42,822 bases of DNA from a virus. The position numbers and the translations under genes are program-made. Below the pieces are notes generated by a model. That model did not search any database. It was given only the letters and a program-made list of their open reading frames with translations, and had not been told where the DNA came from. The stretch is from UHGV virus genome UHGV-1378655; one strand, 5' to 3'. Shown here one piece after another: positions 1 to 11,602 of the stretch (positions are counted from its first letter, which is position 1; the number at the start of each line of letters is the position of its first letter).

Positions 1-15
1 AAAGGAGGTGGTTTT

Positions 16-222
16 ATGAAAAACGTTTATGCTTGTTTACTTGGCGAATGGGTAAATCTATCTGAAACAAATGATGTTGTAATTGATAACGCATATACAG
101 ATGCAAACCTTTGGTATAAAGAACAAATCGATAACTTGTTCAATTTCAACTACATCAACATTAAAATTGATAATGTGAATTACCGAATCCACCCTAGTTT
201 CATTCAAGTTTTAACTAAGTGA
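16..222 (+). CDS. hypothetical small protein (68 aa)
   Basis: ORF with strong RBS AAAGGAGGTG 6 nt upstream of ATG at 16; opposite strand to the surrounding early genes. Confidence 0.5.
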   Translation: MKNVYACLLGEWVNLSETNDVVIDNAYTDANLWYKEQIDNLFNFNYINIKIDNVNYRIHPSFIQVLTK

Positions 223-375
223 TTTTTTAATTACTTCACAGCTATGACTGTCAAGCTCAACCTTGACGGTCTTATGGCTGTAAGCTCTGTTAACTTCTTG
301 CACTAATCTATCCCATTCATATTTAGGAGTGCCGTCTATTATTTTTAGAATTTCATCTAGTTTTTCTTCTTCCAT
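211..375 (-). CDS. hypothetical 54-aa protein, second gene of the cro-like operon (not in the ORF track)
   Basis: ATG at 375 preceded by TAAGGAGGTGAAACAGA; translates MEEEKLDEILKIIDGTPKYEWDRLVQEVNRAYSHKTVKVELDSHSCEVIKKSLS; below the track's length cutoff. Confidence 0.45.
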   Translation of the reverse strand: MEEEKLDEILKIIDGTPKYEWDRLVQEVNRAYSHKTVKVELDSHSCEVIKKSLS

Positions 376-392
376 TCTGTTTCACCTCCTTA

Positions 393-635
393 TTAAGTTG
401 TTTGTGGCTCTCGTTTCATTTTTGAGACATTGTGATTAAAAAAATAATCATCCATACTAATATCTAAAACATCGCAAATCGCACTTGCTTCATCAATAGT
501 AAAATTGCTTTTGTTTTTATTAATCTTTTGACTAAAGCGTGCAGGATTCATACCAATCATGTTAGCGACATCTTTATGAGAATACTTACTCTCATCAATG
601 AAATTTCGTAAATCTTGATATCTCTTTTTATTCAT
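393..635 (-). CDS. XRE-family helix-turn-helix regulator, Cro-like
   Basis: 80-aa protein with an HTH_XRE-type sequence; divergent from the repressor gene; C-terminal KREPQTT. Confidence 0.8.
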   Translation of the reverse strand: MNKKRYQDLRNFIDESKYSHKDVANMIGMNPARFSQKINKNKSNFTIDEASAICDVLDISMDDYFFNHNVSKMKREPQTT

Positions 636-679
636 GTTTTTATCACCTCTTTCGTCTCATTTATGAGATTACACTAATT

Positions 680-710
680 ACTATACAAGGCAACTGTTTC
701 GTTGTCAACG
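680..710 (-). promoter_or_regulatory. leftward early promoter with an overlapping operator palindrome
   Basis: minus strand -35 TTGACA (703-708), 17-bp spacer, -10 TATAGT (680-685); perfect 11-bp palindrome CGTTGTCAACG (700-710) covers the -35. Confidence 0.5.
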
Positions 711-731
711 AATAAATTTCATTTTTGAGAA

Positions 732-786
732 ACAAATTTGTAAAATGTGTTGCAAATATGAGAACAAACTTATATAATAAGTTTGT
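732..786 (+). promoter_or_regulatory. rightward repressor-operon promoter with two ACAAA-type operator palindromes
   Basis: -35 TTGCAA 750-755, 17-bp spacer, -10 TATAAT 773-778; palindrome ACAAATTTGT 732-741; palindrome ACAAACTTAT-ATA-ATAAGTTTGT 764-786 covers the -10. Confidence 0.5.
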
Positions 787-810
787 AAAAAACAAACAAG
801 GAGTAAAAAC

Positions 811-1143
811 ATGACTAATTTCTCAGACAACCTTAGTAAATTAAGAAAATCACGTGACTTATCATTAAAAGAATTGAGTGACAGACTTAATGCAAAATAT
901 GAAGTTAAATTTTCAAAAGCATCAATAGATCGATGGGAAAAAGGTGTTACTAGCCCTTCTATGGAACATGCTAGCGCGTTATCGGATTACTTTAACGTAT
1001 CTTTGGATGAGTTAAGTGGAAGAAAAGAAATGAAAATCGAGGAACCTCAAACACTAGCCGCGCATTTAGAAGGCGAGCTAAAAAAGGAGGATGTGGACTA
1101 TATTTTAAGTTTGATTGATAGATTTAAAAACGAAGATAAATAA
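811..1143 (+). CDS. XRE-family HTH repressor (ImmR/CI-like, no peptidase domain)
   Basis: 110 aa with an N-terminal HTH; immediately followed by an ImmA-type protease gene, as in ImmR-ImmA modules; C-terminal KIEEPQTL. Confidence 0.8.
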   Translation: MTNFSDNLSKLRKSRDLSLKELSDRLNAKYEVKFSKASIDRWEKGVTSPSMEHASALSDYFNVSLDELSGRKEMKIEEPQTLAAHLEGELKKEDVDYILSLIDRFKNEDK

Positions 1144-1148
1144 AGGGA

Positions 1149-1619
1149 TTGATTTTATTGTCACATTACGAAGAATTACTTACTAAGAATGAACACATTA
1201 AAATTAAAGACACACACTCGTTACCTAATGGATATAGTGGTTTTTATAAAGATGGAGTAATACTTATCGATAAAAACCTGTCTGAAAGACGTAAAGCTGA
1301 GGTATTATACGAAGAACTAGCACACCATAAACTTACATATGGAAACATCTTAGACCAATCTAAATTCAACAACCGTAAATTTGAAAACTACGCTAGGCGT
1401 TACGGGTATGAAACCGCTCTACCTTTGCGCATTATTGTGGAAGCGCATAACTATGGTGTTAGTAACTTATATGAATTAGCTGAATATGTTCAATTAAGCG
1501 AAGAATATATATCAGAAATATTGAAACATTACAAAAACAAATATGGCATTGGAACTAACTACGGAGAATACTTAATTACATTTGATCCGTTAAGAGTTTT
1601 TAAATATAAAGAAATATAA
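1149..1619 (+). CDS. ImmA/IrrE-family zinc metallopeptidase (anti-repressor protease)
   Basis: HEXXH motif (EELAHH); gene immediately downstream of the XRE repressor. Confidence 0.8.
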   Translation: MILLSHYEELLTKNEHIKIKDTHSLPNGYSGFYKDGVILIDKNLSERRKAEVLYEELAHHKLTYGNILDQSKFNNRKFENYARRYGYETALPLRIIVEAHNYGVSNLYELAEYVQLSEEYISEILKHYKNKYGIGTNYGEYLITFDPLRVFKYKEI

Positions 1620-1623
1620 AAAA

Positions 1624-1643
1624 AGGAGAAATGTAGAATGAAA
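1624..1643. repeat. 20-bp direct repeat AGGAGAAATGTAGAATGAAA, copy 1
   Basis: identical 20-mer at 2102-2121; serves as RBS and start for the 158-aa ORF. Confidence 0.9.
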
Positions 1644-2114
1644 GAACCGCCGCATAATAGACTTACATTTAAAGAGAGTATGACAGAAGGCAAATATCTG
1701 ACGACAATAACTAAAGAAGATAAAATTCGTTATAAAAAATTATCTGTTGAAGAAAAAAGAAAAGTATTAAATGATTTCAACGCTTCTACACCGCAAAAGG
1801 ACGACAAAGTTAGCTTATTCGATTATATGAAACGCACTATGTTAAAACATGGTTTAGACGAAGTGACTTCTATTACAGAAAATGCTGTTTTAAAAAACGA
1901 ACCAGGCAAACATATCGACAGTTTTATGACGAGATTGAGTAGTTTTTCAACAACAAAAGATGGAACAACTGTTTTCACATATGAGTTAATCAATCAAAAC
2001 TTTGTTGTTATAAAAATATTAGATGAACAACTGAAACAAAACAAAAAAATAATAGAACAAAATAATGAAATCATCAGTTTACTCAAACAAATAGCTAACA
2101 GAGGAGAAATGTAG
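1638..2114 (+). CDS. hypothetical protein (158 aa), accessory cassette gene
   Basis: ORF with RBS GGAGAAATG; exactly bounded by the 20-bp direct repeats. Confidence 0.6.
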   Translation: MKEPPHNRLTFKESMTEGKYLTTITKEDKIRYKKLSVEEKRKVLNDFNASTPQKDDKVSLFDYMKRTMLKHGLDEVTSITENAVLKNEPGKHIDSFMTRLSSFSTTKDGTTVFTYELINQNFVVIKILDEQLKQNKKIIEQNNEIISLLKQIANRGEM

Positions 2115-2121
2115 AATGAAA
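2102..2121. repeat. 20-bp direct repeat AGGAGAAATGTAGAATGAAA, copy 2
   Basis: identical to 1624-1643; contains the stop codon of the 158-aa ORF and the RBS and start of the lipoprotein gene. Confidence 0.9.
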
Positions 2122-2598
2122 AAGGTTCTTTTTTTAATTTTTGCTAGTTTATTAGTATTAGGTGCATGTGGACAAGATGAGGACAAAAACAAAGAAGATG
2201 ATGCTAAAAAGGTTGAAGTTAAAAAGACGAAAGAAAACAAAAAAGATAAACAAAGTCAATCTAAAGAACAAAAACAAGAAAAACCTTATAACAATGATGA
2301 TGAACCAATTTTAAATGATAACAGAAATGCAAACGACAACAATTCAAATCAACGGAACAATAAACAAAATCAAAATGTAGATAAAATTGATAACAATGCG
2401 TACAACCAACAGCAAAACGGTCAAGTAAATCAAAAAGAAAATACAGAAAATGGACTTGACCCAAACTTCGTACGACATAATGACAACATGGTAAAAGAAT
2501 GGCAAAATCAAATGCGAGAACACAACGAAAACTTTAATCCTGAATCTGGTGGAGATTTGTATAACGTCGAAACCGGTAACTACGTTGATGATGAATAA
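2116..2598 (+). CDS. lipoprotein with an N/Q/D-rich low-complexity region (candidate superinfection-exclusion protein)
   Basis: signal peptide plus lipobox LLVLGAC; gene lies between the immunity genes and the integrase. Confidence 0.75.
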   Translation: MKKVLFLIFASLLVLGACGQDEDKNKEDDAKKVEVKKTKENKKDKQSQSKEQKQEKPYNNDDEPILNDNRNANDNNSNQRNNKQNQNVDKIDNNAYNQQQNGQVNQKENTENGLDPNFVRHNDNMVKEWQNQMREHNENFNPESGGDLYNVETGNYVDDE

Positions 2599-2659
2599 AA
2601 TTATGGGGGTAGTCCACCTACCCTTATTATTTTTTTACTTTTTTAAGGGGTGATGAATT

Positions 2660-4029
2660 ATGAACGTAGCTATTTACGTTCGTGTCAGGTCAGTACATTA
2701 GAACAAAAAGAACATGGCTATTCTATTGAAGAACAAGAAAGGAAGCTCAAATCATTTTGTGAGATAAACGATTGGAGTGTATCAGATGTATTTATTGACG
2801 CTGGTTTCTCTGGTGCTAAACGTGAACGACCAGAATTACAACGTATGATGAATGATATTAAACGGTTTGATTTAGTTTTAGTGTATAAGTTAGATAGGCT
2901 TACACGTAATGTACGTGATCTACTTGATTTATTAGAGGTATTCGAACAGAATAACGTAGCGTTTAGAAGTGCGACAGAAGTTTACGATACATCTACAGCT
3001 ATGGGTAGACTATTTGTTACATTAGTTGGCGCTATGGCAGAGTGGGAAAGAGAAACCATTAGAGAGCGTGTTATGATGGGTAAACGCGCAGCGATTAAAC
3101 AAGGCATGATACTTACACCACCACCCTTTTATTATGATCGTGTAGATAACACTTACATTCCTAATGATTATAAAAAAGTAGTTTTATGGGCATACGACGA
3201 AGTGATGAAAGGTAATAGTTCAAAAGCTATAGCTAGAAAATTAAACGATTCAGATATACCACCTCCTAATGGCAAAAGGTGGGAAGATAGAACAATAACG
3301 AGAGCACTAAGAAACCCTATAACAAGAGGTCATTATACTTGGGGAGATGTATTTATAGAAAACTCTCACGAGCCTATTATTACCGAAGAAATGTATCAAC
3401 AAATAAAAGAAAGATTAGAAGAAAGAATCAACACTAAAATAGTAAGTCATGTATCAGTATTCAGAGGTAAATTTATTTGCCCAAGATGTGGTGGCACATT
3501 AACACTGAATACAGTGACAAGAAAGAGAAAGAAAGGTTATGTTACCTATAAAACGTATTATTGCAACACATGTAAAGCTAAAAAGGAGAGTTTCGGTTTT
3601 TCAGAGAATGAAGCGTTGAGAGTGTTTCGTGATTACCTATCTAAACTAGACTTAGAAAAATACGAAGTAAAGAAAAAACAAAAAGACGATGTCGTTACTA
3701 TTGATATAGACAAAGTCATGGAACAACGTAAAAGGTATCATAAATTATATGCTAAAGGGTTAATGCAAGAAGAAGAATTATTTGAATTAATCAAAGAAAC
3801 AGACGAAACAATCGCAGAATATGAAAAACAAAAAGAATTAGTACCCAGAAAATCACTAGATATAGATAAGATAAAAAAATTTAAAAATGCATTATTGGAA
3901 TCGTGGAAAATATTCTCGTTAGAAGATAAAGCGGATTTCATTAAGATGGCTATTAAATCTATAGACATAGAGTATGTAAAAATTAAAAACAGGCATTCTA
4001 TTAAAATAAGCGATATAGAATTTTATTAA
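2660..4029 (+). pseudogene. int: large serine recombinase (integrase), N-terminally frameshifted by a 5-bp tandem duplication
   Basis: RBS GGGGTGA 8 nt before ATG 2660; canonical MNVAIYVRV then stop; duplication GTCAG/GTCAG at 2684-2693; removing one copy restores MNVAIYVRVSTLEQ; the rest of the ORF (resolvase domain, recombinase domain, Cys-rich zinc ribbon) is intact; the track's ORF starts at GTG 2650 in the shifted frame. Confidence 0.6.
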
Positions 4030-4034
4030 CTTAT

Positions 4035-4089
4035 GTACGGAAGTATAGACACTCGATTAATATTTAATGTGTATACTTCCGTATTTTTA
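4035..4089 (+). terminator. putative integrase terminator
   Basis: GTACGGAAGTATA...TATACTTCCGTA(T) stem with a large loop, followed by TTTTTA. Confidence 0.4.
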
Positions 4090-4152
4090 TTTATAGAACC
4101 CGTAGAATTCGTCGAGTTTAGATTATCCGTGTCGAAATCGAGGCGTTTGAAA

Positions 4153-4186
4153 TTAAAAAACAACCACGCCCATTAAGAACGTGGTT
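4153..4186 (-). terminator. rho-independent terminator on the minus strand inside the int-lysin gap
   Basis: AACCACG/CGTGGTT 7-bp stem followed by GTTTTTTAATTT on the minus strand. Confidence 0.45.
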
Positions 4187-4236
4187 TAGAATATAGTATT
4201 AATTTAAAATTGGGAACAAAGATTATTATACAAAAA

Positions 4237-4295
4237 ACACAACCACTACTATATATTATATTCGCGACTATAAAATATAGCTTATACGGTTGTGT
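4237..4295. repeat. 59-bp imperfect palindrome (attP candidate)
   Basis: outer arms ACACAACC/GGTTGTGT; inner arms TATATATTATATTCG/CGACTATAAAATATA match 13/15; centre TCGCGA. Confidence 0.4.
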
Positions 4296-4568
4296 GCCAT
4301 TTTTACGGTTTCTATCCCACCGTCAAAGTCATAGTCGTATTCATCCTTCAGACAAAAAGCGAGTCCGCAATGGCAGGAGAATGTAAATATATTATAACAT
4401 AAAACTTATACATACACTCTATTTTACCACTGTCTAAGTTATAATTTTCATACATTTTATCACTTAGGTTATAGAAAAATCGATATAAAAATAAGGTAAC
4501 CGTCAGTAACAGTTACCTCAAGTACACTCCGCAGATGTGTACCGCAATTTCTATTTAATTATAGCGTA

Positions 4569-4598
4569 TTTGCGAGCGACATACATGTCGGTCGCAAA
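4569..4598. repeat. 30-bp near-perfect palindrome TTTGCGAGCGACATACATGTCGGTCGCAAA (attP or operator candidate)
   Basis: arms match 14/16. Confidence 0.4.
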
Positions 4599-4630
4599 GC
4601 TAGAAAACTACTAGAAATCTACTAGAAAAA
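4599..4630. repeat. tandem direct repeats of CTACTAGAAA with 11-bp period (2.5 copies)
   Basis: gCTAGAAAA, CTACTAGAAAT, CTACTAGAAAAA, directly abutting the 30-bp palindrome. Confidence 0.6.
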
Positions 4631-4775
4631 CCACCCAGTGACATGTGTGGGTAGTTAAAAGTAAACGGTGCAGTCAGCTTCTTACTGCTAAACGCAAGCA
4701 AGTCCTCTGCACATAATAAAACATACCAAATGATAGTATGCCAGTGTCAAACACTGTTTCCTCATTAACATTATA

Positions 4776-4810
4776 ACATAAAAAAACAGGGTAGCCATAG
4801 CGACTACCCT
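4776..4810 (-). terminator. rho-independent terminator of the lysis operon
   Basis: AGGGTAG/CTACCCT stem followed by TTTTTTTATG on the minus strand, about 40 nt after the endolysin stop. Confidence 0.6.
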
Positions 4811-4847
4811 TGTATAATGACGTGGTACCTGTATTGTACCACATAAT

Positions 4848-6572
4848 TTAATATACTTTTGTAATTCTAAGTCTTTCGTGCCATACCCAGTAGTTATCAC
4901 TAGGACCGTGTACACGACACCAACCGTCGATAATCTCGTAAACATAGAATAATTGACCTTTACCATATGTTGTATTAGTCATATTCCATGAATAATTACC
5001 TTTACCGCCATGCCTATTAAGTATAGTTGCGCCAAAGCTATCTGCGCGTGCTGCAAAGTATTTTTTGCGTTGCCAACCTAATTTTTTAGGTGGTATTTGA
5101 CCTATAGAAAGCTTATTTTTAGATTTCTTTGCTATTTTTTTCATTTCTTTTGTTTGCTTACTTGCTTTTTTGCCATCTCTTGTTTCATTGTGTTTATATT
5201 CTTTAGTGATGATCAAACGCTCATGCCATACCCAGTAATTACTACTTTCAGAATAAACACGCGCCCAACCTTCACGTACTTCATATACGTAAAACGGACT
5301 ATAACCTGCTTTGTATACTAGATTAGTTTTCTTCATATATCCGTTTTTAACATCTTTGCAGATAGTGACACCTGCACTGTCTGCTTTTGCAATATAATGA
5401 GGTGTTTTACTCCATACTAAGTTTTTAGGTACTCGTTTACCATTATATTTATTTGTAGCCTTGCGAGTTGTAACTGTTTTGATTTTGTTTACATCATAAT
5501 CTTCATCAACAAATGATGGCACAATGTAATGCGTTGTTCCATAAAAATTATCAACACGTAGTTTTGCAGGTGTATCTGCGTTACCATCAAAGTTTTGTTC
5601 TAATACAGTTTGTGTGTTAGTTCCTCCACTATTATCCCAAACTAAATAGATGTGACCGTATCTTTGGTATATACCATACGTACATACACCAATTGCTCCA
5701 ACTGGTGGTACATAATCCGGTGTATTTTTGACAATCTTCCAACCTTTAGGGAATATATTGAGGATACTATCTTTCGCATTACCCCACATTCTAACTTTAC
5801 CATTAGTTATGTGATATACGTAATCAACTGCTAAGTCCATACATTGATATGCCCAACGATTATCAAAGTCAACAAACTTACCTTTCAAGCTATACATATA
5901 ATTGATTGCACTTTGGTAATCTTTTGTTGATGGCTTAGATTTAGGTTTTTCTTTGTTTTTACCTTTGTTTCCGGCTTTCTTCTTGCTAACTTTGGGAACT
6001 TTAACGCCGTCAATATATTTAGCTACATACCCATCAAAGATACTCGTATTACGACCTAAGCCACAAGCTTCTAATAAGTTTCCAGGATCTTGCTTGTCAT
6101 ACTGTATGTCTTGATGACCTGGCATTTCATTTTTATAGTTAATCTTCCAAAATTTAGTAAGATAAGCCATGATACGCACTGCGTTATCTAACGACTTTAA
6201 GCTGCGTTTCTTATCTGTGAAGTAACATGCTTCTACACCAAATGCCGCATAGTCAGCGTCAGCATTATACCACTGATTATCTATAGTAGTATTCAACATA
6301 ACGTGCCATGCTACCTCTGTAACTGGAATACATATAATTGCTTCTTTGTCATCAACAAAAATATGAGCGCTCGCTACCATACTCCAAGCGATATTATAAG
6401 TATTTTTATAATAATTCACATTATCTTGTGCAGTAGTATTTGGATTCCCAGTATCATGAATAACTGCAAAACTAGGCTTTCCATTTTTAGTGTGTAATGC
6501 TTCTCCACTACGACGTGTTCCAATAGGCAACAAATCGTAACGCACTGGTACTCCATTCCATTTTTCTGCCAT
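4848..6572 (-). CDS. endolysin: N-terminal Amidase_2 (PGRP-type), central CHAP, two C-terminal SH3-like repeats
   Basis: HDTGN and GHQD amidase motifs; K-rich linker; CHAP with AYQCMDL Cys and YGHIYLV His; duplicated approximately 65-aa repeats ending NYWVWHERL. Confidence 0.85.
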   Translation of the reverse strand: MAEKWNGVPVRYDLLPIGTRRSGEALHTKNGKPSFAVIHDTGNPNTTAQDNVNYYKNTYNIAWSMVASAHIFVDDKEAIICIPVTEVAWHVMLNTTIDNQWYNADADYAAFGVEACYFTDKKRSLKSLDNAVRIMAYLTKFWKINYKNEMPGHQDIQYDKQDPGNLLEACGLGRNTSIFDGYVAKYIDGVKVPKVSKKKAGNKGKNKEKPKSKPSTKDYQSAINYMYSLKGKFVDFDNRWAYQCMDLAVDYVYHITNGKVRMWGNAKDSILNIFPKGWKIVKNTPDYVPPVGAIGVCTYGIYQRYGHIYLVWDNSGGTNTQTVLEQNFDGNADTPAKLRVDNFYGTTHYIVPSFVDEDYDVNKIKTVTTRKATNKYNGKRVPKNLVWSKTPHYIAKADSAGVTICKDVKNGYMKKTNLVYKAGYSPFYVYEVREGWARVYSESSNYWVWHERLIITKEYKHNETRDGKKASKQTKEMKKIAKKSKNKLSIGQIPPKKLGWQRKKYFAARADSFGATILNRHGGKGNYSWNMTNTTYGKGQLFYVYEIIDGWCRVHGPSDNYWVWHERLRITKVY

Positions 6573-6584
6573 TTTATAGGCCTC

Positions 6585-6872
6585 CTATTCCTTATTAGGT
6601 TTCTTATATTCTTGAGCCATTAAACTATCGGACAAACCAGCACTTGTACCGTCTACTGCCGACATATATAGACTTACCAACACACCTATTACAGCAATTG
6701 GATTGCTAATAAATTTTAATAAAGCTTCTCCAACAGCACCCCAAGTAGTTAATGAATGCCAATCAATTCCTAAATAAACAAGAATAGGCATAAATGCACC
6801 TACAATTAATTGAATAATAGCTATAGGATTATTAAATCTTACATGCCAATTTATTCCTAAGAAATTTCTCAT
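6585..6872 (-). CDS. holin
   Basis: 95 aa with two hydrophobic segments and a charged C-terminus; immediately upstream of the endolysin. Confidence 0.7.
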   Translation of the reverse strand: MRNFLGINWHVRFNNPIAIIQLIVGAFMPILVYLGIDWHSLTTWGAVGEALLKFISNPIAVIGVLVSLYMSAVDGTSAGLSDSLMAQEYKKPNKE

Positions 6873-6950
6873 ACATATATCTCCTTTTTAAATAAAATAA
6901 AAAGACCTAACCACTATCGATTAGATCTGAAATCAAAATTCACTAATTAT

Positions 6951-9098
6951 TTATCTATATTTATCTCTGATATAATACATACCTTTTAATCCTACTTTTT
7001 TGTACAAACTGTTTATTGTTGTTGCTTGGAAATTACACCATTCGATAGCAGTAGCATATTGCATACGACCTGGATTACTAGGATTCCAACGCATTCTGTA
7101 TAAGGTGTTTTTACCTTTGTTAAAGTATTGTTTCCTAACGAACTTAGCACCACCTATAATACCATTACGTGGACTTGTCCAGCCTTGGCGTTTGGCATAC
7201 GCTATAGAAGCGTTAGGGTTGTTATCATATGCTGCAATACCAAAGTAGTTATAAATTCCATAGCGCCCACTAGCAAAGTTACTACGGCCATATCCACTTT
7301 CTAAGAAAGCGTGAGCAATTAAGTAAATTTCATTTACATTGTACTTCTTACAACCGTCTGCAAAAGCTTTACCTTGTCCAGATAAAGTGCCTTTACCTTT
7401 AAGTATCTTATTCAACTTACTTACTGATATACCTTGATATTTTCCTAAATCTAGCATTTGATAGCGTTGAGTTGAACTATTCCATATAGTGTTAGGATTC
7501 ATATACTTACTTGTTTGTGACCTAGAAGCATTACCCCAACCCCAACTATAAGATTTTTGAGGCATGCCATGAGCCATTTGTGCATTAAGCGCTTGTTGGA
7601 AAGTATATTTACTTTTCTCTACAACTACACGAGGTTTATTTGAAGTTCTGTTTGTCGTTTTTCCTGTCGACTTATCGTTCTGTGAAGGATTGTCGACCGA
7701 AGTTTTAGGTTTAATTTTTATCTTTGTCTTTGTAGTTGTTGTAGTAATTGTTTCTGTAAGTAATTTATCTCTTTTCAAATATAAACCGATAATTTTCTTC
7801 TCGACTTCTTTATATTTACTTTCATCAGGAATACCATTTTTGATTAAGTCGTAATTGATTAAATCTTTCATAGAACGCCATATGTTAGGATCTGCTTTGA
7901 TTGACGATTCAGAAAGTTTCACCTTACTCCAACTTAGCAACCAAACGCCGTAGATTAACGCTCTGATTTGATTGAGCATGAATTGGCGTTTGCTATCCGT
8001 TTGTCCTCCGCAAACTTCCATAACAAGCCAACCTGGATGTTCTGGTGCTTCTTCTGAATCAGGTCTAGGTGTCCATACACGCTCACGGTCTATATATACA
8101 TGAGGGTATTCATCTTCATTCACATATTTATTACGTTGTAAATACAATTCTTCAACAGAACGCATATGTGTACTCTCTTTGATATATATACCTTTTACTT
8201 TCCCTATCAACTTTTGCCCTTCAACCATATAATGATAAATATATTCCAAATCATCGTCTAAATCATATGCGAACGATGTATAGGAAACTTTGGTAACCTC
8301 TTTAGTTATAGGTTTCGTTTGTTCTTTTGTGTTTTTAGGAGTGTTTTCATTAGAGGGTTTGGACGGTGTACTACTTGGTTTCGATGGTTTCTTAGTTTCT
8401 GCGTGGTAGGGAGGTCTGACGAACCCACTTATACCATAGTATGTGTGTTTTTCTAACGAACCGGGAGAACCGGTATAACCGTTTGCATTTCGCCAATTTT
8501 GATCCACACTGGTGAAGTAACTCTTGTTAGATGGACCTACTACAACAGCTGTATGTCCTGTGCCATTATTAAAAGAACCTGTACCCCATACAGCCATATC
8601 TCCGGGTTTCGGAACAAAGTTTCTAGTATTCCTATAGAATTTGAACCCTTTAGGATATCTATACCACGCCATAGCAATCGCATTTCCTGTTGTTTTGAAA
8701 TGCCAATATCTATTGAAAATGTAGTTTGGTAAATCCCACAATTTTGTTACGATGACAATCGCCACTTGTCACCTTCTTCATATTTCTATGAATGTTCAGA
8801 CTATATCATCAACCTATTAGGTTGCTCCCCGTTTCCACTCGCTTGAGTGTACGTCTTTCGACTAGTCGTTGCACGTTCCTATTTATAGGCTTCGCTCATG
8901 ATTGCCTACAACATAACTTGTTTAGGGTTCCCATGAATTAGAGGAGTTTGCTATGATGATTACTCATCAAAGGTGCTAGATTCAACACTGGGCGCCATAA
9001 TAACCATCTACATCAACTCTTCTGCCAATCATTCTTTTTGCCCATGCTGCAACTTCCGAAGCAGTAGGTTTTCTTCTTTTAGGATTAGGTAATCCCAT
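6951..9098 (-). CDS. tail-associated peptidoglycan hydrolase (N-terminal CHAP, C-terminal glucosaminidase), split into two exons (9098-8985 and 8738-6951) by a 246-nt group I-like intron
   Basis: exon 1 reads MGLPNPKRRKPTASEVAAWAKRMIGRRVDVDGYYGAQC with RBS GAGGTGG; exon 2 resumes WDLPNYIFNRYW...; the Cys-His CHAP domain is restored by splicing; C-terminal LIAHAFLESGYG GH73-like motif. Confidence 0.7.
8739..8984 (-). ncRNA. ORF-less group I-like self-splicing intron (246 nt)
   Basis: begins after U of the Cys codon UGU; P1 GUGU paired to GCAC with G.U wobble; GNRA hairpin UGAUGA-GUAA-UCAUCA; P-like AAUUCAUGGGAA; Q-like AAUCAUGAGCGAAG; R GACUA; S GAUAUAGUC; P8 and P9-like hairpins (GAAA loop); terminal G before exon 2 UGG. 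Confidence 0.6.
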
Positions 9099-9236
9099 AT
9101 ATCCACCTCATTTCTGGGATAATAAAAAGCCGACTAAAAAGCCGGCTTAATAATCTAATTATTTACATTTACCAAACCAGAAACATTCCCAAAAACTTGC
9201 GCCTAAAAATAATCCGAACATGGTAACTCACCTCCT

Positions 9237-9569
9237 TTAAAGACCAAATATCATTTTGACAGTCGTTACGATTAAGGTTGAAATAATCGTACCGACAAGT
9301 CCTAACACCCAGAATTTAATCTTTTTGATATCTTCTTTACTTTCTTTTTTGTTTTCTTTTTCTAACTCCCTTTCTCTATTTATCGAATCTAAAGTAAAAT
9401 TCATTTTTTGATTAATCAAATTTTGACTGTGTTGTCCATCTTTAATCTTTTCCAAAGAGTCGAAGATTTTTTCGTCGTTATCTTCCAACCTTTTTATACG
9501 TCGTTCATAATCTCCTCTTTGGCTACTTTCTGTCATATAAACACCTACTTCACTTAAAATAAAAACCAC
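9237..9569 (-). CDS. hypothetical membrane-anchored coiled-coil protein
   Basis: RBS AAAGGAGGTGAG; C-terminal transmembrane segment; true start may be the internal Met (MTESS...). Confidence 0.55.
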   Translation of the reverse strand: MVFILSEVGVYMTESSQRGDYERRIKRLEDNDEKIFDSLEKIKDGQHSQNLINQKMNFTLDSINRERELEKENKKESKEDIKKIKFWVLGLVGTIISTLIVTTVKMIFGL

Positions 9570-9586
9570 AAGCTATTTAACTTGTG
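9565..9586 (-). terminator. hairpin terminator after the XkdX-like gene
   Basis: CCACAAG/CTTGTGG stem, then TTTTTATTTT on the minus strand. Confidence 0.45.
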
Positions 9587-9713
9587 GTTCGTAATCTTTA
9601 CCTGTAGTTTCTTTGAATTGCTCCGGAGTAATCCAACCAACTCTAACAAACTTTTTGAAAGTTTCGTCAGTGTATAATTTTTTCTTATATAAATCGATTA
9701 CTACTTTATCCAT
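9573..9713 (-). CDS. XkdX-family small phage protein (46 aa, not in the ORF track)
   Basis: MDKVVIDLYKKKLYTDETFKKFVRVGWITPEQFKETTGKDYEPQVK; start overlaps the upstream stop (TAATATG). Confidence 0.6.
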   Translation of the reverse strand: MDKVVIDLYKKKLYTDETFKKFVRVGWITPEQFKETTGKDYEPQVK

Positions 9714-9714
9714 A

Positions 9715-10074
9715 TTATGCTTCCTCCAATTTTTGATTTGCTTGTTCTTCAGTTATTAGTGCGATGTTCTGCTTCAAACTCATAACCTCTTCTTGTAAAT
9801 CGACAACTAAGCTCGTTAATTTAGCTATAGCAATATCTTTGTCATCAACAGGAATTTCTACTTCAGGCAACATCTTTTCTAGCTCATCTTGGGTTTGCCC
9901 AACCCATTTTTTACCGTCATAATAGCAAGGTAAGATGATACCTTGAGGAGGTTGGTTCTCTGTCCATTTTTCATCAGGATAAACATATTCATCTTCTTCG
10001 TTTTTGTGAACAATAATTGCTTGTCCATTTTTCCATAAATAAACTACTTTCATTTCATCACTCCGTCCATTCAT
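9715..10074 (-). CDS. hypothetical tail-accessory protein
   Basis: ORF in the baseplate gene block. Confidence 0.5.
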   Translation of the reverse strand: MNGRSDEMKVVYLWKNGQAIIVHKNEEDEYVYPDEKWTENQPPQGIILPCYYDGKKWVGQTQDELEKMLPEVEIPVDDKDIAIAKLTSLVVDLQEEVMSLKQNIALITEEQANQKLEEA

Positions 10075-11602
10075 ATTGACCGTAAATATAATCTGTATCA
10101 GTCCACGCTGATGGATCTACAGTAGCGTCAAAATTCACTGTTCCTGATGTGTTCAACGAAATACGTCCGTTGTTTTTATTTCTAGGTGTGCTTATTGAGA
10201 AAAACATTAAGTTTTTGACGAATTCTTTAGGTAAAAGTGCAATAGTCTGTCCATGTTTGATAGTTGTAGCATTAATGCGTAACATTTTCTTAGTAATTCC
10301 ATTTTTTGTGATTGTTCTGTATGCACTAGTGAATCCACCTTTAGTAACTAAGTCGTTATGAGACGATGCACTGTTCACTAGTTGTAAATCAATCCAACCA
10401 GTATCTACAACTTTAGGATTTAAAAGTACCCAACCTTTATCTATTCCATTAGTATGAATTGTTTTAGACCACAACTCATTAAGATAGTTTTGATGAAGTA
10501 ATATCTGTTTTCTTCCTTGTTTCCCTTCTGTGACATTGATTTCAGCTATATAAGCTACACCGCTTAAACTTTGAGGAGTATTTGTTATTTTGTAATCACT
10601 AGGAATTGAACATTCGTATAAACCGGGTTCCAAAGTTTCAACCGGTTCAGATAAAATTCCTAGCCATTGTCTTGTGCCATTGTTATCTGTAAATTTGTAT
10701 TTTTGCCAATCTAACTCATTTAATTTATTGTCTACATCACTTGGAGTAGTAAAGCCATCATTCTTAAGTGTTTCATTAAACGAATTAACTTTTTCATCTA
10801 TCGTTGTATTAGCGTTACTAACATTTGTATTAAAAGATTGAACGTTGCTATCATACAATTTTTGGAATGTATCTGAAGCTAAATCATAATCCGTCTTGAT
10901 AGCGTCACGTTTAGCATCTATTTGTCTTAACGCTTCTTCTCTCTCTAACTCGATGCTTTGGTTAGACGACAATAATGCGTCTGTAATGGCAATAAGAGCG
11001 TCTGCTTGAGCCTTGTTTATTTTAATGAGGTATTCTTCAGCTGTTTGCTTAATAGATTCAATCAACGTTTGTGTATCGCCTATATCTTGCTTAAGTTGTT
11101 GCACTTTCTTTTCTAATTCCGAACGCAAATCATCAAACATGCGAATATAAGATACTTTGATATCACTTTCGATTTGATTGATAAGACTATCACGTACTGT
11201 GAATTTAAAGGTACCTAACACAACAGTATCGTCTTTTCCTATATTGTTTACATCGTTAAGCGATAGGTAAATTTCACCCAACACTTCAGAATCGACTACG
11301 TTTTTCAGAAACCATTGAGGTACCGTAACACCTATTAATCCTTTCATTGAATCAATGAATTCTACGTCTAATACACCTGATGTACTAGGTCGTTTTTCTT
11401 CTGTTCCGTTCGCAGCTTTAAAGAAAGCATAACCTTTAACGTTCTTATCGCTGATTAACAAAGGTTTGTTGTCTTTTTGTACTACAAATTGAAATTTAGC
11501 AGTGTTTTTATCGAGATTATAAAAACCGATACCTCTATTAGATATCGGTTGTAAATACGGTTCTTCGTTTAAATCAAGTTTACCTACTTTTTCTAATTCC
11601 AT
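10058..11602 (-). CDS. baseplate upper protein (BppU-like) / tail fibre
   Basis: 514 aa with a central coiled coil; position after the beta-helix fibre gene. Confidence 0.65.
   Translation of the reverse strand: MELEKVGKLDLNEEPYLQPISNRGIGFYNLDKNTAKFQFVVQKDNKPLLISDKNVKGYAFFKAANGTEEKRPSTSGVLDVEFIDSMKGLIGVTVPQWFLKNVVDSEVLGEIYLSLNDVNNIGKDDTVVLGTFKFTVRDSLINQIESDIKVSYIRMFDDLRSELEKKVQQLKQDIGDTQTLIESIKQTAEEYLIKINKAQADALIAITDALLSSNQSIELEREEALRQIDAKRDAIKTDYDLASDTFQKLYDSNVQSFNTNVSNANTTIDEKVNSFNETLKNDGFTTPSDVDNKLNELDWQKYKFTDNNGTRQWLGILSEPVETLEPGLYECSIPSDYKITNTPQSLSGVAYIAEINVTEGKQGRKQILLHQNYLNELWSKTIHTNGIDKGWVLLNPKVVDTGWIDLQLVNSASSHNDLVTKGGFTSAYRTITKNGITKKMLRINATTIKHGQTIALLPKEFVKNLMFFSISTPRNKNNGRISLNTSGTVNFDATVDPSAWTDTDYIYGQYEWTE

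Follow-up and report, generated by a model that had tools for sequence, protein, structure and literature searches.

Large serine recombinases of the TP901-1 and phiMR11 type, the closest described relatives of the gene considered here, share an architecture in which a resolvase catalytic domain is accompanied by a recombinase domain and a zinc ribbon with a coiled coil. In these phages attP lies directly 3' of the integrase gene, int, integration takes place inside a host gene, and the active-site motif and the body of the protein are encoded in one frame. The int gene of UHGV virus genome UHGV-1378655, a stretch of 42,822 nucleotides (nt) that we refer to as the window, has the same architecture and the same arrangement, but its first nine codons (frame A) are out of frame with the remainder of the gene (frame B). 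The break falls at a tandem duplication of GTCAG. A preliminary description of this DNA had attributed the duplication either to a sequencing error or to a real slipped-strand mutation, which would give an integration-defective and effectively virulent derivative. Here we show that the duplicated allele is real, widespread, under purifying selection and integration-competent, and we propose, with a probability of about one half, that active integrase is made by a 5-nt translational hop from GUC 2684-2686 to GUC 2689-2691.

The elements of the frame break are given below. Counts refer to 129 loci with the duplicated site, comprising 45 unique sequence contexts, that were recovered in scans of viral, genome and metagenome collections.

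2660-2662, plus strand: likely true initiation AUG of frame A (MNVAIYVRV...), 9 nt from the Shine-Dalgarno (SD) core
2684-2693, plus strand: GTCAG tandem duplication (copies 2684-2688 and 2689-2693), read from the sequence and found in the 129 loci
2692-4029, plus strand: body of the serine integrase in frame B, from the catalytic Ser codon AGT (2692-2694) to TAA (4027-4029), identified by Pfam and structure matches
2699-2701, plus strand: zero-frame TAG stop, which ends the 13-codon peptide MNVAIYVRVRSVH in the absence of recoding; present in 45/45 unique contexts

Read from AUG 2660, the gene runs ATG AAC GTA GCT ATT TAC GTT CGT GTC AGG TCA GTA CAT TAG, that is, MNVAIYVRVRSVH followed by a stop. 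Removal of one GTCAG copy yields MNVAIYVRVSTLEQ..., in frame with the remaining 445 codons, for a protein of 454 amino acids in total. The sole uninterrupted frame extends from GTG 2650 or ATG 2653 to TAA 4027-4029, and at the active site it reads SCQVSTLEQ; the catalytic Ser is kept, without an Arg at -2 and without a Tyr at -4. A contiguous Y-x-R-x-S-T-x-x-Q active-site motif is not encoded in one frame and is obtained only by joining YVRV of frame A to STLEQ of frame B across the 5-nt repeat. On these points the preliminary description was accurate: it had located the 5-bp (base-pair) duplication at 2684-2693, recognized ATG 2660 as a properly spaced start that stops after 13 codons, noted that deletion of one GTCAG restores a continuous canonical N-terminus, and observed that in the open, annotated frame β-strand 1 is replaced and the catalytic Ser no longer has an Arg at -2. 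Chance alone produces many tandem 5-mers (28 in the window versus ~40 expected from shuffles), so the GTCAG repeat is meaningful only by virtue of its position and the comparative data.

Profile matches identify the long open reading frame (ORF) as a large serine recombinase. The Pfam Resolvase model (PF00239) matches the annotated ORF at 3.7e-41 and the repaired protein at 8e-45; repair adds 11.8 bits and moves the start of the alignment from profile position 7 to position 1. The Recombinase model (PF07508) matches at 7e-22, and Zn_ribbon_recom (PF13408) scores 23.5 bits, slightly below its cut-off of 25.3, with the CPRC...CNTC cysteines present. The nearest solved structure is the catalytic domain of TP901-1 integrase (3BVP, 2e-38), and the C-terminal domain of A118 integrase (4KIS) is matched at 2.3e-8. 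At the DNA level phiMR11 int is ~75% identical, and phiMR11-like proteins are ~73-74% identical. By these comparisons the protein is an ordinary TP901-1/phiMR11-type serine integrase, apart from a catalytic motif that is split over two frames.

The window is ~93-95% identical to temperate Staphylococcus epidermidis siphoviruses of the PH15/CNPH82/E72/phiIPLA group, and an alignment shows that the int 5' region, including GTCAGGTCAG, is identical in PH15, CNPx, phiIPLA7, CNPH82, E72, 459, 456, 48, 27 and IME1348_01. The records of these relatives annotate int from the ATG equivalent to 2653, giving MNYERSYLRSCQVST.... The window's exact 458-amino-acid frame-B protein, named 'recombinase family protein [Staphylococcus epidermidis]' by NCBI, occurs on 166 contigs and lies within a 90% cluster of 1065 sequences. 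Among the members listed from that cluster, 14/15 start with MNYERSYLRSCQVST or its S-to-R variant MNYERRYLRSCQVST, which is the frame-broken N-terminus. The number of GTCAG copies is exactly two in every one of the 129 loci. A single GTCAG within an otherwise identical 5' end was found in StB20, a phage of S. capitis, and at loci L094, L095 and L097, which indicates that the ancestor had one copy and that the second was inserted later; in a tree these single-copy alleles group in a single clade of their own instead of being interspersed with the duplicated alleles. No independent frame breaks were found in other integrase homologues, all 128 flagged cases being the same insertion. The duplication is an old, stably inherited insertion in a functional integrase gene, common to hundreds of temperate Staphylococcus phages and prophages. 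Its identity in many independently sequenced phages and prophages disposes of the suggestion of a sequencing error.

A Staphylococcus prophage integrase was also encountered at locus L005, on a 79.7-kb contig (NZ_JBHLXP010000009.1) of the gammaproteobacterial assembly 'Rheinheimera tilapiae KCTC 23315'. A 6-kb flank at this locus is 99.8% identical to the S. epidermidis chromosome, and the contig is almost certainly Staphylococcus contamination of that assembly.

Carriers of the duplication are found integrated. S. epidermidis chromosomes contain integrated prophages with an identical int, in one case on a contig of 2.28 Mb. In these prophages, which differ in their replication modules, int is followed by a truncated pyridine-nucleotide oxidoreductase gene and then by the mevalonate operon, and the attL/attR junctions of the integrated prophages fall in the oxidoreductase gene. 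At locus L170, an integrated prophage, the junction after int consists of a phage half-site and a host half-site. The window itself carries the excised form:

4037-4082, no strand assigned: attP, an imperfect inverted repeat ACGGAAGTATAGACAC ... GTGTATACTTCCGT around the overlap ATTAATAT at 4056-4063

The window attP and the L170 junction agree with the attL and with the overlap ATATTAAT that Fišarová et al. reported (PMC8125051). In that work phages 27, 48, 456, 459 and E72 were lysogenized in the laboratory, and site-specific integration, verified by sequencing, occurred at this site in all cases; E72 had been spontaneously induced from a clinical strain (PMC8125051). All five of these phages carry the GTCAG duplication, and their GenBank source is given as 'induced prophage'. 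Another carrier, phiIPLA7, has been described as temperate (PMC3505474). The att hybrids in integrated prophages and the laboratory lysogens of duplication carriers are strong, albeit indirect, evidence that the duplicated int catalyzes attP x attB integration.

Around the att site, several further features were observed. Locus L167 (ERZ505619 NODE_10, 1-11377) is a prophage remnant in which the lysogeny module and the duplicated int are left beside an att junction, and chorismate-binding, UbiA and acetyltransferase host genes stand in place of the other phage genes. The region 3' of attP (window 4848-6572, minus strand) varies among relatives, which encode an endonuclease, a membrane-associated protein or short hypothetical proteins at this position; this makes the int-attP-lysis junction a mosaic hotspot. 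In the intergenic region that separates attP from the lysin gene (4160-4295, minus strand) there is a sub-threshold Rfam match to the staphylococcal small RNA RsaA, which at 26 bits against a gathering score of 50 is probably due to chance.

Sequence variation among the duplicated alleles indicates that the gene is maintained. The body is complete and open in 51/51 duplicated alleles examined (39 unique), none of which is truncated. Across 34 unique duplicated alleles the ratio of nonsynonymous to synonymous substitution rates (dN/dS) is 0.062, with a mean dS of 0.294 and a mean dN of 0.018, and polymorphic codons comprise 191 with synonymous changes only versus 75 with amino acid changes. The low dN/dS and the open body in all 51 alleles led us to reject an inactivated gene or pseudogene. 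The same data bear on the view that the window represents an error or a private inactivating mutation in a phage that can no longer integrate. The canonical N-terminus is indeed disrupted and the window is in the excised attP form, as that view would have it, but the duplication is common to many independent sequences, close homologous integrases share this N-terminus in carriers that are functional, and the cI/M78 lysogeny module of the window is intact. Together with the integrated prophages and the laboratory lysogens, purifying selection refutes the proposed integration defect, and we regard a sequencing error or private mutation as extremely improbable.

Could integration instead depend on a minority of genomes that have lost one GTCAG by slippage? 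Tandem repeats can contract by slipped-strand mispairing, and natural single-copy alleles with the same att site exist. However, the duplication is present in the integrated prophages themselves, and in a 15-billion-protein collection the repaired counterpart of the exact window allele was found on no contig, versus 166 contigs for the duplicated form. Since, in addition, the single-copy alleles form a separate clade and the copy number is always two, reversion at the DNA level is very unlikely. A phase-variable contingency locus was rejected on the same grounds, namely the constant copy number, the separate single-copy clade and the absence of the repaired allele from the collection.

Given that the allele is functional as it stands, the question becomes where translation begins and how the two frames are joined. 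The region around the start contains the following elements:

2604-2644, plus strand: conserved int-upstream region, a GGGTAG/CTACCC hairpin followed by a T-rich tract, conserved across relatives
2646-2654, plus strand: extended SD sequence AGGGGTGAT, with GGGGTGA at 2647-2653 and GTGAT invariant in the 45 unique contexts
2653-2655, plus strand: ATG used as the int start by database annotations (frame B), inside the SD duplex and 2 nt from the SD core
2659-2684, plus strand: 11-bp RNA hairpin with the loop CUAU, ΔG -9.9 kcal/mol, probability of AUG 2660 being unpaired ~0; its last base is the first base of the proposed take-off codon

The AGGGGT of this region fits the 'AGGNGT' extended-SD motif defined for S. 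aureus, and staphylococcal ribosomes favor spacers between SD and start that are 2-3 nt longer than those favored in Escherichia coli and, where two starts compete, take the downstream one (PMC13009471). In the single-copy alleles StB20, L094, L095 and L097, AUG, SD and hairpin are all unchanged, and this AUG is the sole possible start. From the spacing rules and the single-copy alleles, AUG 2660 is likely to be the true initiation codon. Folding of 2625-2705 gave a z score of -2.9. The hairpin at 2659-2684 is specific to the window-type 5' patch, where it occurs in both single-copy and duplicated alleles; it is absent from StB12-like and phiMR11-like alleles, and it moved together with the duplication into a second integrase lineage. 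The hairpin is predicted to bury AUG 2660 and probably serves as a translation attenuator.

Upstream of int, staphylococcal phages share a conserved 40-bp region, with CNPH82 and PH15 among the phages listed; it is reported to hold a sigma-H-dependent int promoter, and in phi11 the sigma-H-dependent int transcript begins between this region and the start codon (PMC2869324). By homology, 2604-2644 would be the corresponding sigma-H-dependent promoter region. Its hairpin and T-run stand directly after the stop of the ORF at 2116-2598 and resemble an intrinsic terminator, overlapping the sigma-H promoter region of Tao et al. 2010. This ORF (plus strand, 160 amino acids) lies between the lysogeny module and int, starts with MKKVLFLIFASLLVLGAC and has a lipoprotein signal peptide with a lipobox. 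It has no Pfam match, some relatives encode a DUF5067 protein at its position, and it is possibly a lysogenic-conversion (moron) gene.

The main alternative to a hop is initiation in frame B, at ATG 2653 or GTG 2650 and perhaps on a near-leaderless sigma-H transcript, which would require the MNYERSYLRSCQVST... protein to be active without equivalents of Tyr6 and Arg8. Frame B is open from ATG 2653 in 129/129 loci, this ATG is the start in every database annotation, and AUG 2660 is buried in the -9.9 kcal/mol hairpin. ATG 2653, however, is placed within the SD duplex, where staphylococcal ribosomes would take the longer-spaced downstream start, and the single-copy alleles must start at AUG 2660 despite having the same hairpin. 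The first 13 residues of the frame-B protein do not match the Resolvase profile, and the product would read ...RSCQVST. In Tn3 resolvase the substitutions R8A, R8K, Y6A and Y6F reduce cleavage to ≤0.0002 of the reference rate, a loss of at least 5000-fold, and abolish resolution in vivo (PMC2794168). A hop of even 0.1-1% efficiency would therefore out-supply the frame-B protein. The frame-B peptide is, moreover, an out-of-frame reading of the ancestral N-terminus that shows no adaptive change despite a dS of ~0.3, and the few variants in this segment are mild when read in frame A (A4G, N2D) but radical when read in frame B (S to R, E to G). Taken together, these points make an active product of frame-B initiation unlikely.

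A second integrase lineage, represented by loci L134-L138, carries the same arrangement in a different background. Its integrase body is 69% identical to that of the window, and its host is another staphylococcal species. Comparison of the int 5' ends with those of L133, L146 and L142 shows that L134-L138 are mosaic: the upstream region and the body are StB12-like, and a window-like 5' patch of ~50 nt, spanning the SD-proximal spacer, the hairpin and the duplication, is set between them. Such a patch implies recombination or gene conversion over a very short tract within int. The L134-L138 elements have a different att core, are integrated in the orthologous gene of the other species (host flank ~67% identical), and are seen in both integrated and attP forms. 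Their dN/dS is ~0.03-0.04, with dS up to 0.37. L133, an intact allele, resides in the same host species as the duplicated L138, with host flanks that are 99.8% identical.

The mechanism that we propose for joining the frames is as follows. Ribosomes would initiate at AUG 2660, correctly spaced from the extended SD and partly masked by the hairpin, and would first translate MNVAIYVRV. With peptidyl-tRNA-Val on GUC 2684-2686 in the P site, the next codon to be decoded in the A site would be the rare Arg codon AGG (2687-2689). The majority of ribosomes would read AGG and onward, terminating after 13 codons. In a minority, peptidyl-tRNA-Val would unpair and re-pair with the identical GUC at 2689-2691, 5 nt downstream, and decoding would restart at AGT, the codon of the nucleophile Ser10. 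The hop product would be the canonical MNVAIYVRV-STLEQ... integrase. The repeat would thus act as a built-in translational attenuator that holds integrase synthesis low, and a dependence on slow decoding of AGG could make it responsive to the tRNA or amino acid status of the host.

To move from frame A into frame B ahead of TAG 2699, ribosomes must shift by -1, +2, -4 or +5. Given the repeat period of 5, +5 alone brings a cognate codon under the P-site tRNA, and it is also the only shift that regenerates YVRVS. The protein made by such a hop can be aligned with TP901-1 integrase (KVAIYTRVSTTNQ) starting at residue 2, and with the Resolvase profile over its full length. Neither the take-off GTC nor the AGG varies in any of the 129 loci, and at the landing position there is GTC, or rarely GTT or GTG, but always a codon for Val, so that take-off and landing codons are matched for the same peptidyl-tRNA, as expected for bypassing. 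The invariance of the take-off codon means that covariation between the two codons offers no test. Joining the frames restores a conserved protein, and two integrase lineages have retained this arrangement at a dN/dS of 0.03-0.06. AGG is the rarest Arg codon in a sample of host flanks, at 0.9 per 1000 (3324 host codons), and the phage uses it 2.55 times per 1000 codons. Between -10 and +36 there is one singleton polymorphism, versus a gene-wide median of 13 per 54 nt, although the hairpin may account for part of this conservation.

Other forms of recoding at the repeat would also reach frame B before the zero-frame stop while keeping Tyr6 and Arg8. A +2 shift would give ...YVRVVST... and a -1 shift ...YVRVQVST..., placing one or two extra residues between Arg8 and Ser, and a slow AGG in the A site would favor any realignment of the P-site tRNA. 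Neither shift, however, offers this tRNA a cognate codon (CAG or UGU rather than GUC), and there is no slippery X XXY YYZ heptamer at the site. The R-x-S spacing of the +5 product is that of TP901-1 integrase (KVAIYTRVST) and of Tn3 resolvase (R8/S10); to our knowledge it is invariant across the whole serine recombinase family. We therefore consider a +2 or -1 shift improbable. Programmed -1/+1 frameshifting was rejected because the site has neither a slippery heptamer nor a CUU_AGG-type +1 sequence for re-pairing on an overlapping codon, -1 and +2 shifts from GUC lead to UGU and CAG, and +1 leads to the wrong frame. Re-initiation after the 13-codon ORF was rejected as well: from 2656 up to the Ser codon frame B offers no start, and any product would therefore lack the catalytic N-terminus.

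Several observations weigh against a hop. The proposal is reached by elimination. AGG is rare yet not avoided, with five AGG codons in the int body. No 3' stimulatory structure was predicted (2684-2750, z = +1.25), a nascent-peptide signal of the gene 60 type is impossible with a chain of nine residues, and the sole strong hairpin (2659-2684), which single-copy alleles share, is located on the 5' side of the site. ATG 2653 of frame B is kept in 129/129 loci, and the int leader, if it resembles that of phi11, may be very short, which would favor this start. The hairpin and the constraints of initiation could by themselves explain the conservation of the 5' end. We further found no tRNA genes in the window, and hence no phage-encoded tRNA that decodes AGG, and no known RNA family at the site; Rfam returned three weak sub-threshold matches, all elsewhere in the window.

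The closest precedents for the proposed hop are short hops described in E. coli, namely the '+5 and +6' hops of Weiss et al. 1987, the hungry-codon bypassing of Gallant and Lindsley, and the sense-codon hop in over-expressed bovine placental lactogen (summarized in PMC5009743). As proposed for int, these involve matched take-off and landing codons a few nt apart and a slow A-site codon after take-off, with one amino acid specified by more than three nucleotides and no need for an elaborate RNA signal. In E. coli constructs and heterologous expression, short hopping past a slow A-site codon from one matched codon to the other is established experimentally, whereas natural, utilized short hops are very scarce (PMC5009743). 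All of these were either synthetic constructs or artefacts that arose on starvation or heterologous over-expression; the int hop, by contrast, would be naturally selected, conserved and obligatory for the synthesis of an essential phage enzyme, would occur at codon 9 and would take place in a Gram-positive host.

Bacteriophage T4 gene 60 is likewise a phage gene in which peptidyl-tRNA re-pairing at matched codons (GGA/GGA there, GUC/GUC in int) restores a protein. In gene 60 the gap is 50 nt long, the take-off codon is followed by a stop, a stem-loop at take-off is joined by a 5' stem-loop and a nascent-peptide signal, and the efficiency is ~50%. At int only 5 nt would be skipped, with a sense codon in the A site, no predicted 3' structure and a chain of nine residues, and the efficiency would probably be low. 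'Savior' or compensated indels, for example at the herpes simplex thymidine kinase G-run, resemble int in that a frame-breaking indel is tolerated or exploited through a few frame-restoring ribosomes, and -1 frameshifting in IS3/IS1 transposases resembles it in that recoding limits the amount of a DNA recombinase. Both differ in that they depend on slippage to an overlapping codon at a homopolymer or slippery heptamer, whereas int has no slippery run and its codons do not overlap. We found no literature report of a frame break or of recoding in this or any other phage integrase.

In its broadest form the proposal is more tentative. An obligatory 5-nt GUC-GUC hop over the rare AGG at codon 9 is perhaps the only route to active integrase in the dominant temperate S. 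epidermidis phages and in the second lineage that shares the ~50-nt cassette. The cassette would then be a portable attenuator, and it may tie integration and excision to charged AGG-decoding tRNA-Arg and thus to the nutritional state of the host.

The frame break has consequences for how these genes are recorded and used. More than 1000 database entries give the integrase a probably spurious N-terminus, MNYERSYLRSCQ..., since the upstream out-of-frame ATG keeps the frame open and gene finders cannot flag the break. An integrase cloned from the annotated ORF is probably inactive, and deletion of one GTCAG should give the canonical protein. Were frame-B initiation correct after all, these phages would possess a serine recombinase that is active although it lacks Arg8 and Tyr6, two residues supposed to be essential, and this would be surprising to enzymologists. 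For the study of recoding, natural utilized short hops have long been expected and almost never found (PMC5009743), and int provides a widespread candidate that is testable in existing lysogenization assays. For phage biology, the hop, if true, would mean that a frame break in the first ten codons is a new way to throttle integrase synthesis, with an effect on the stability of prophages in a major skin commensal and opportunistic pathogen.

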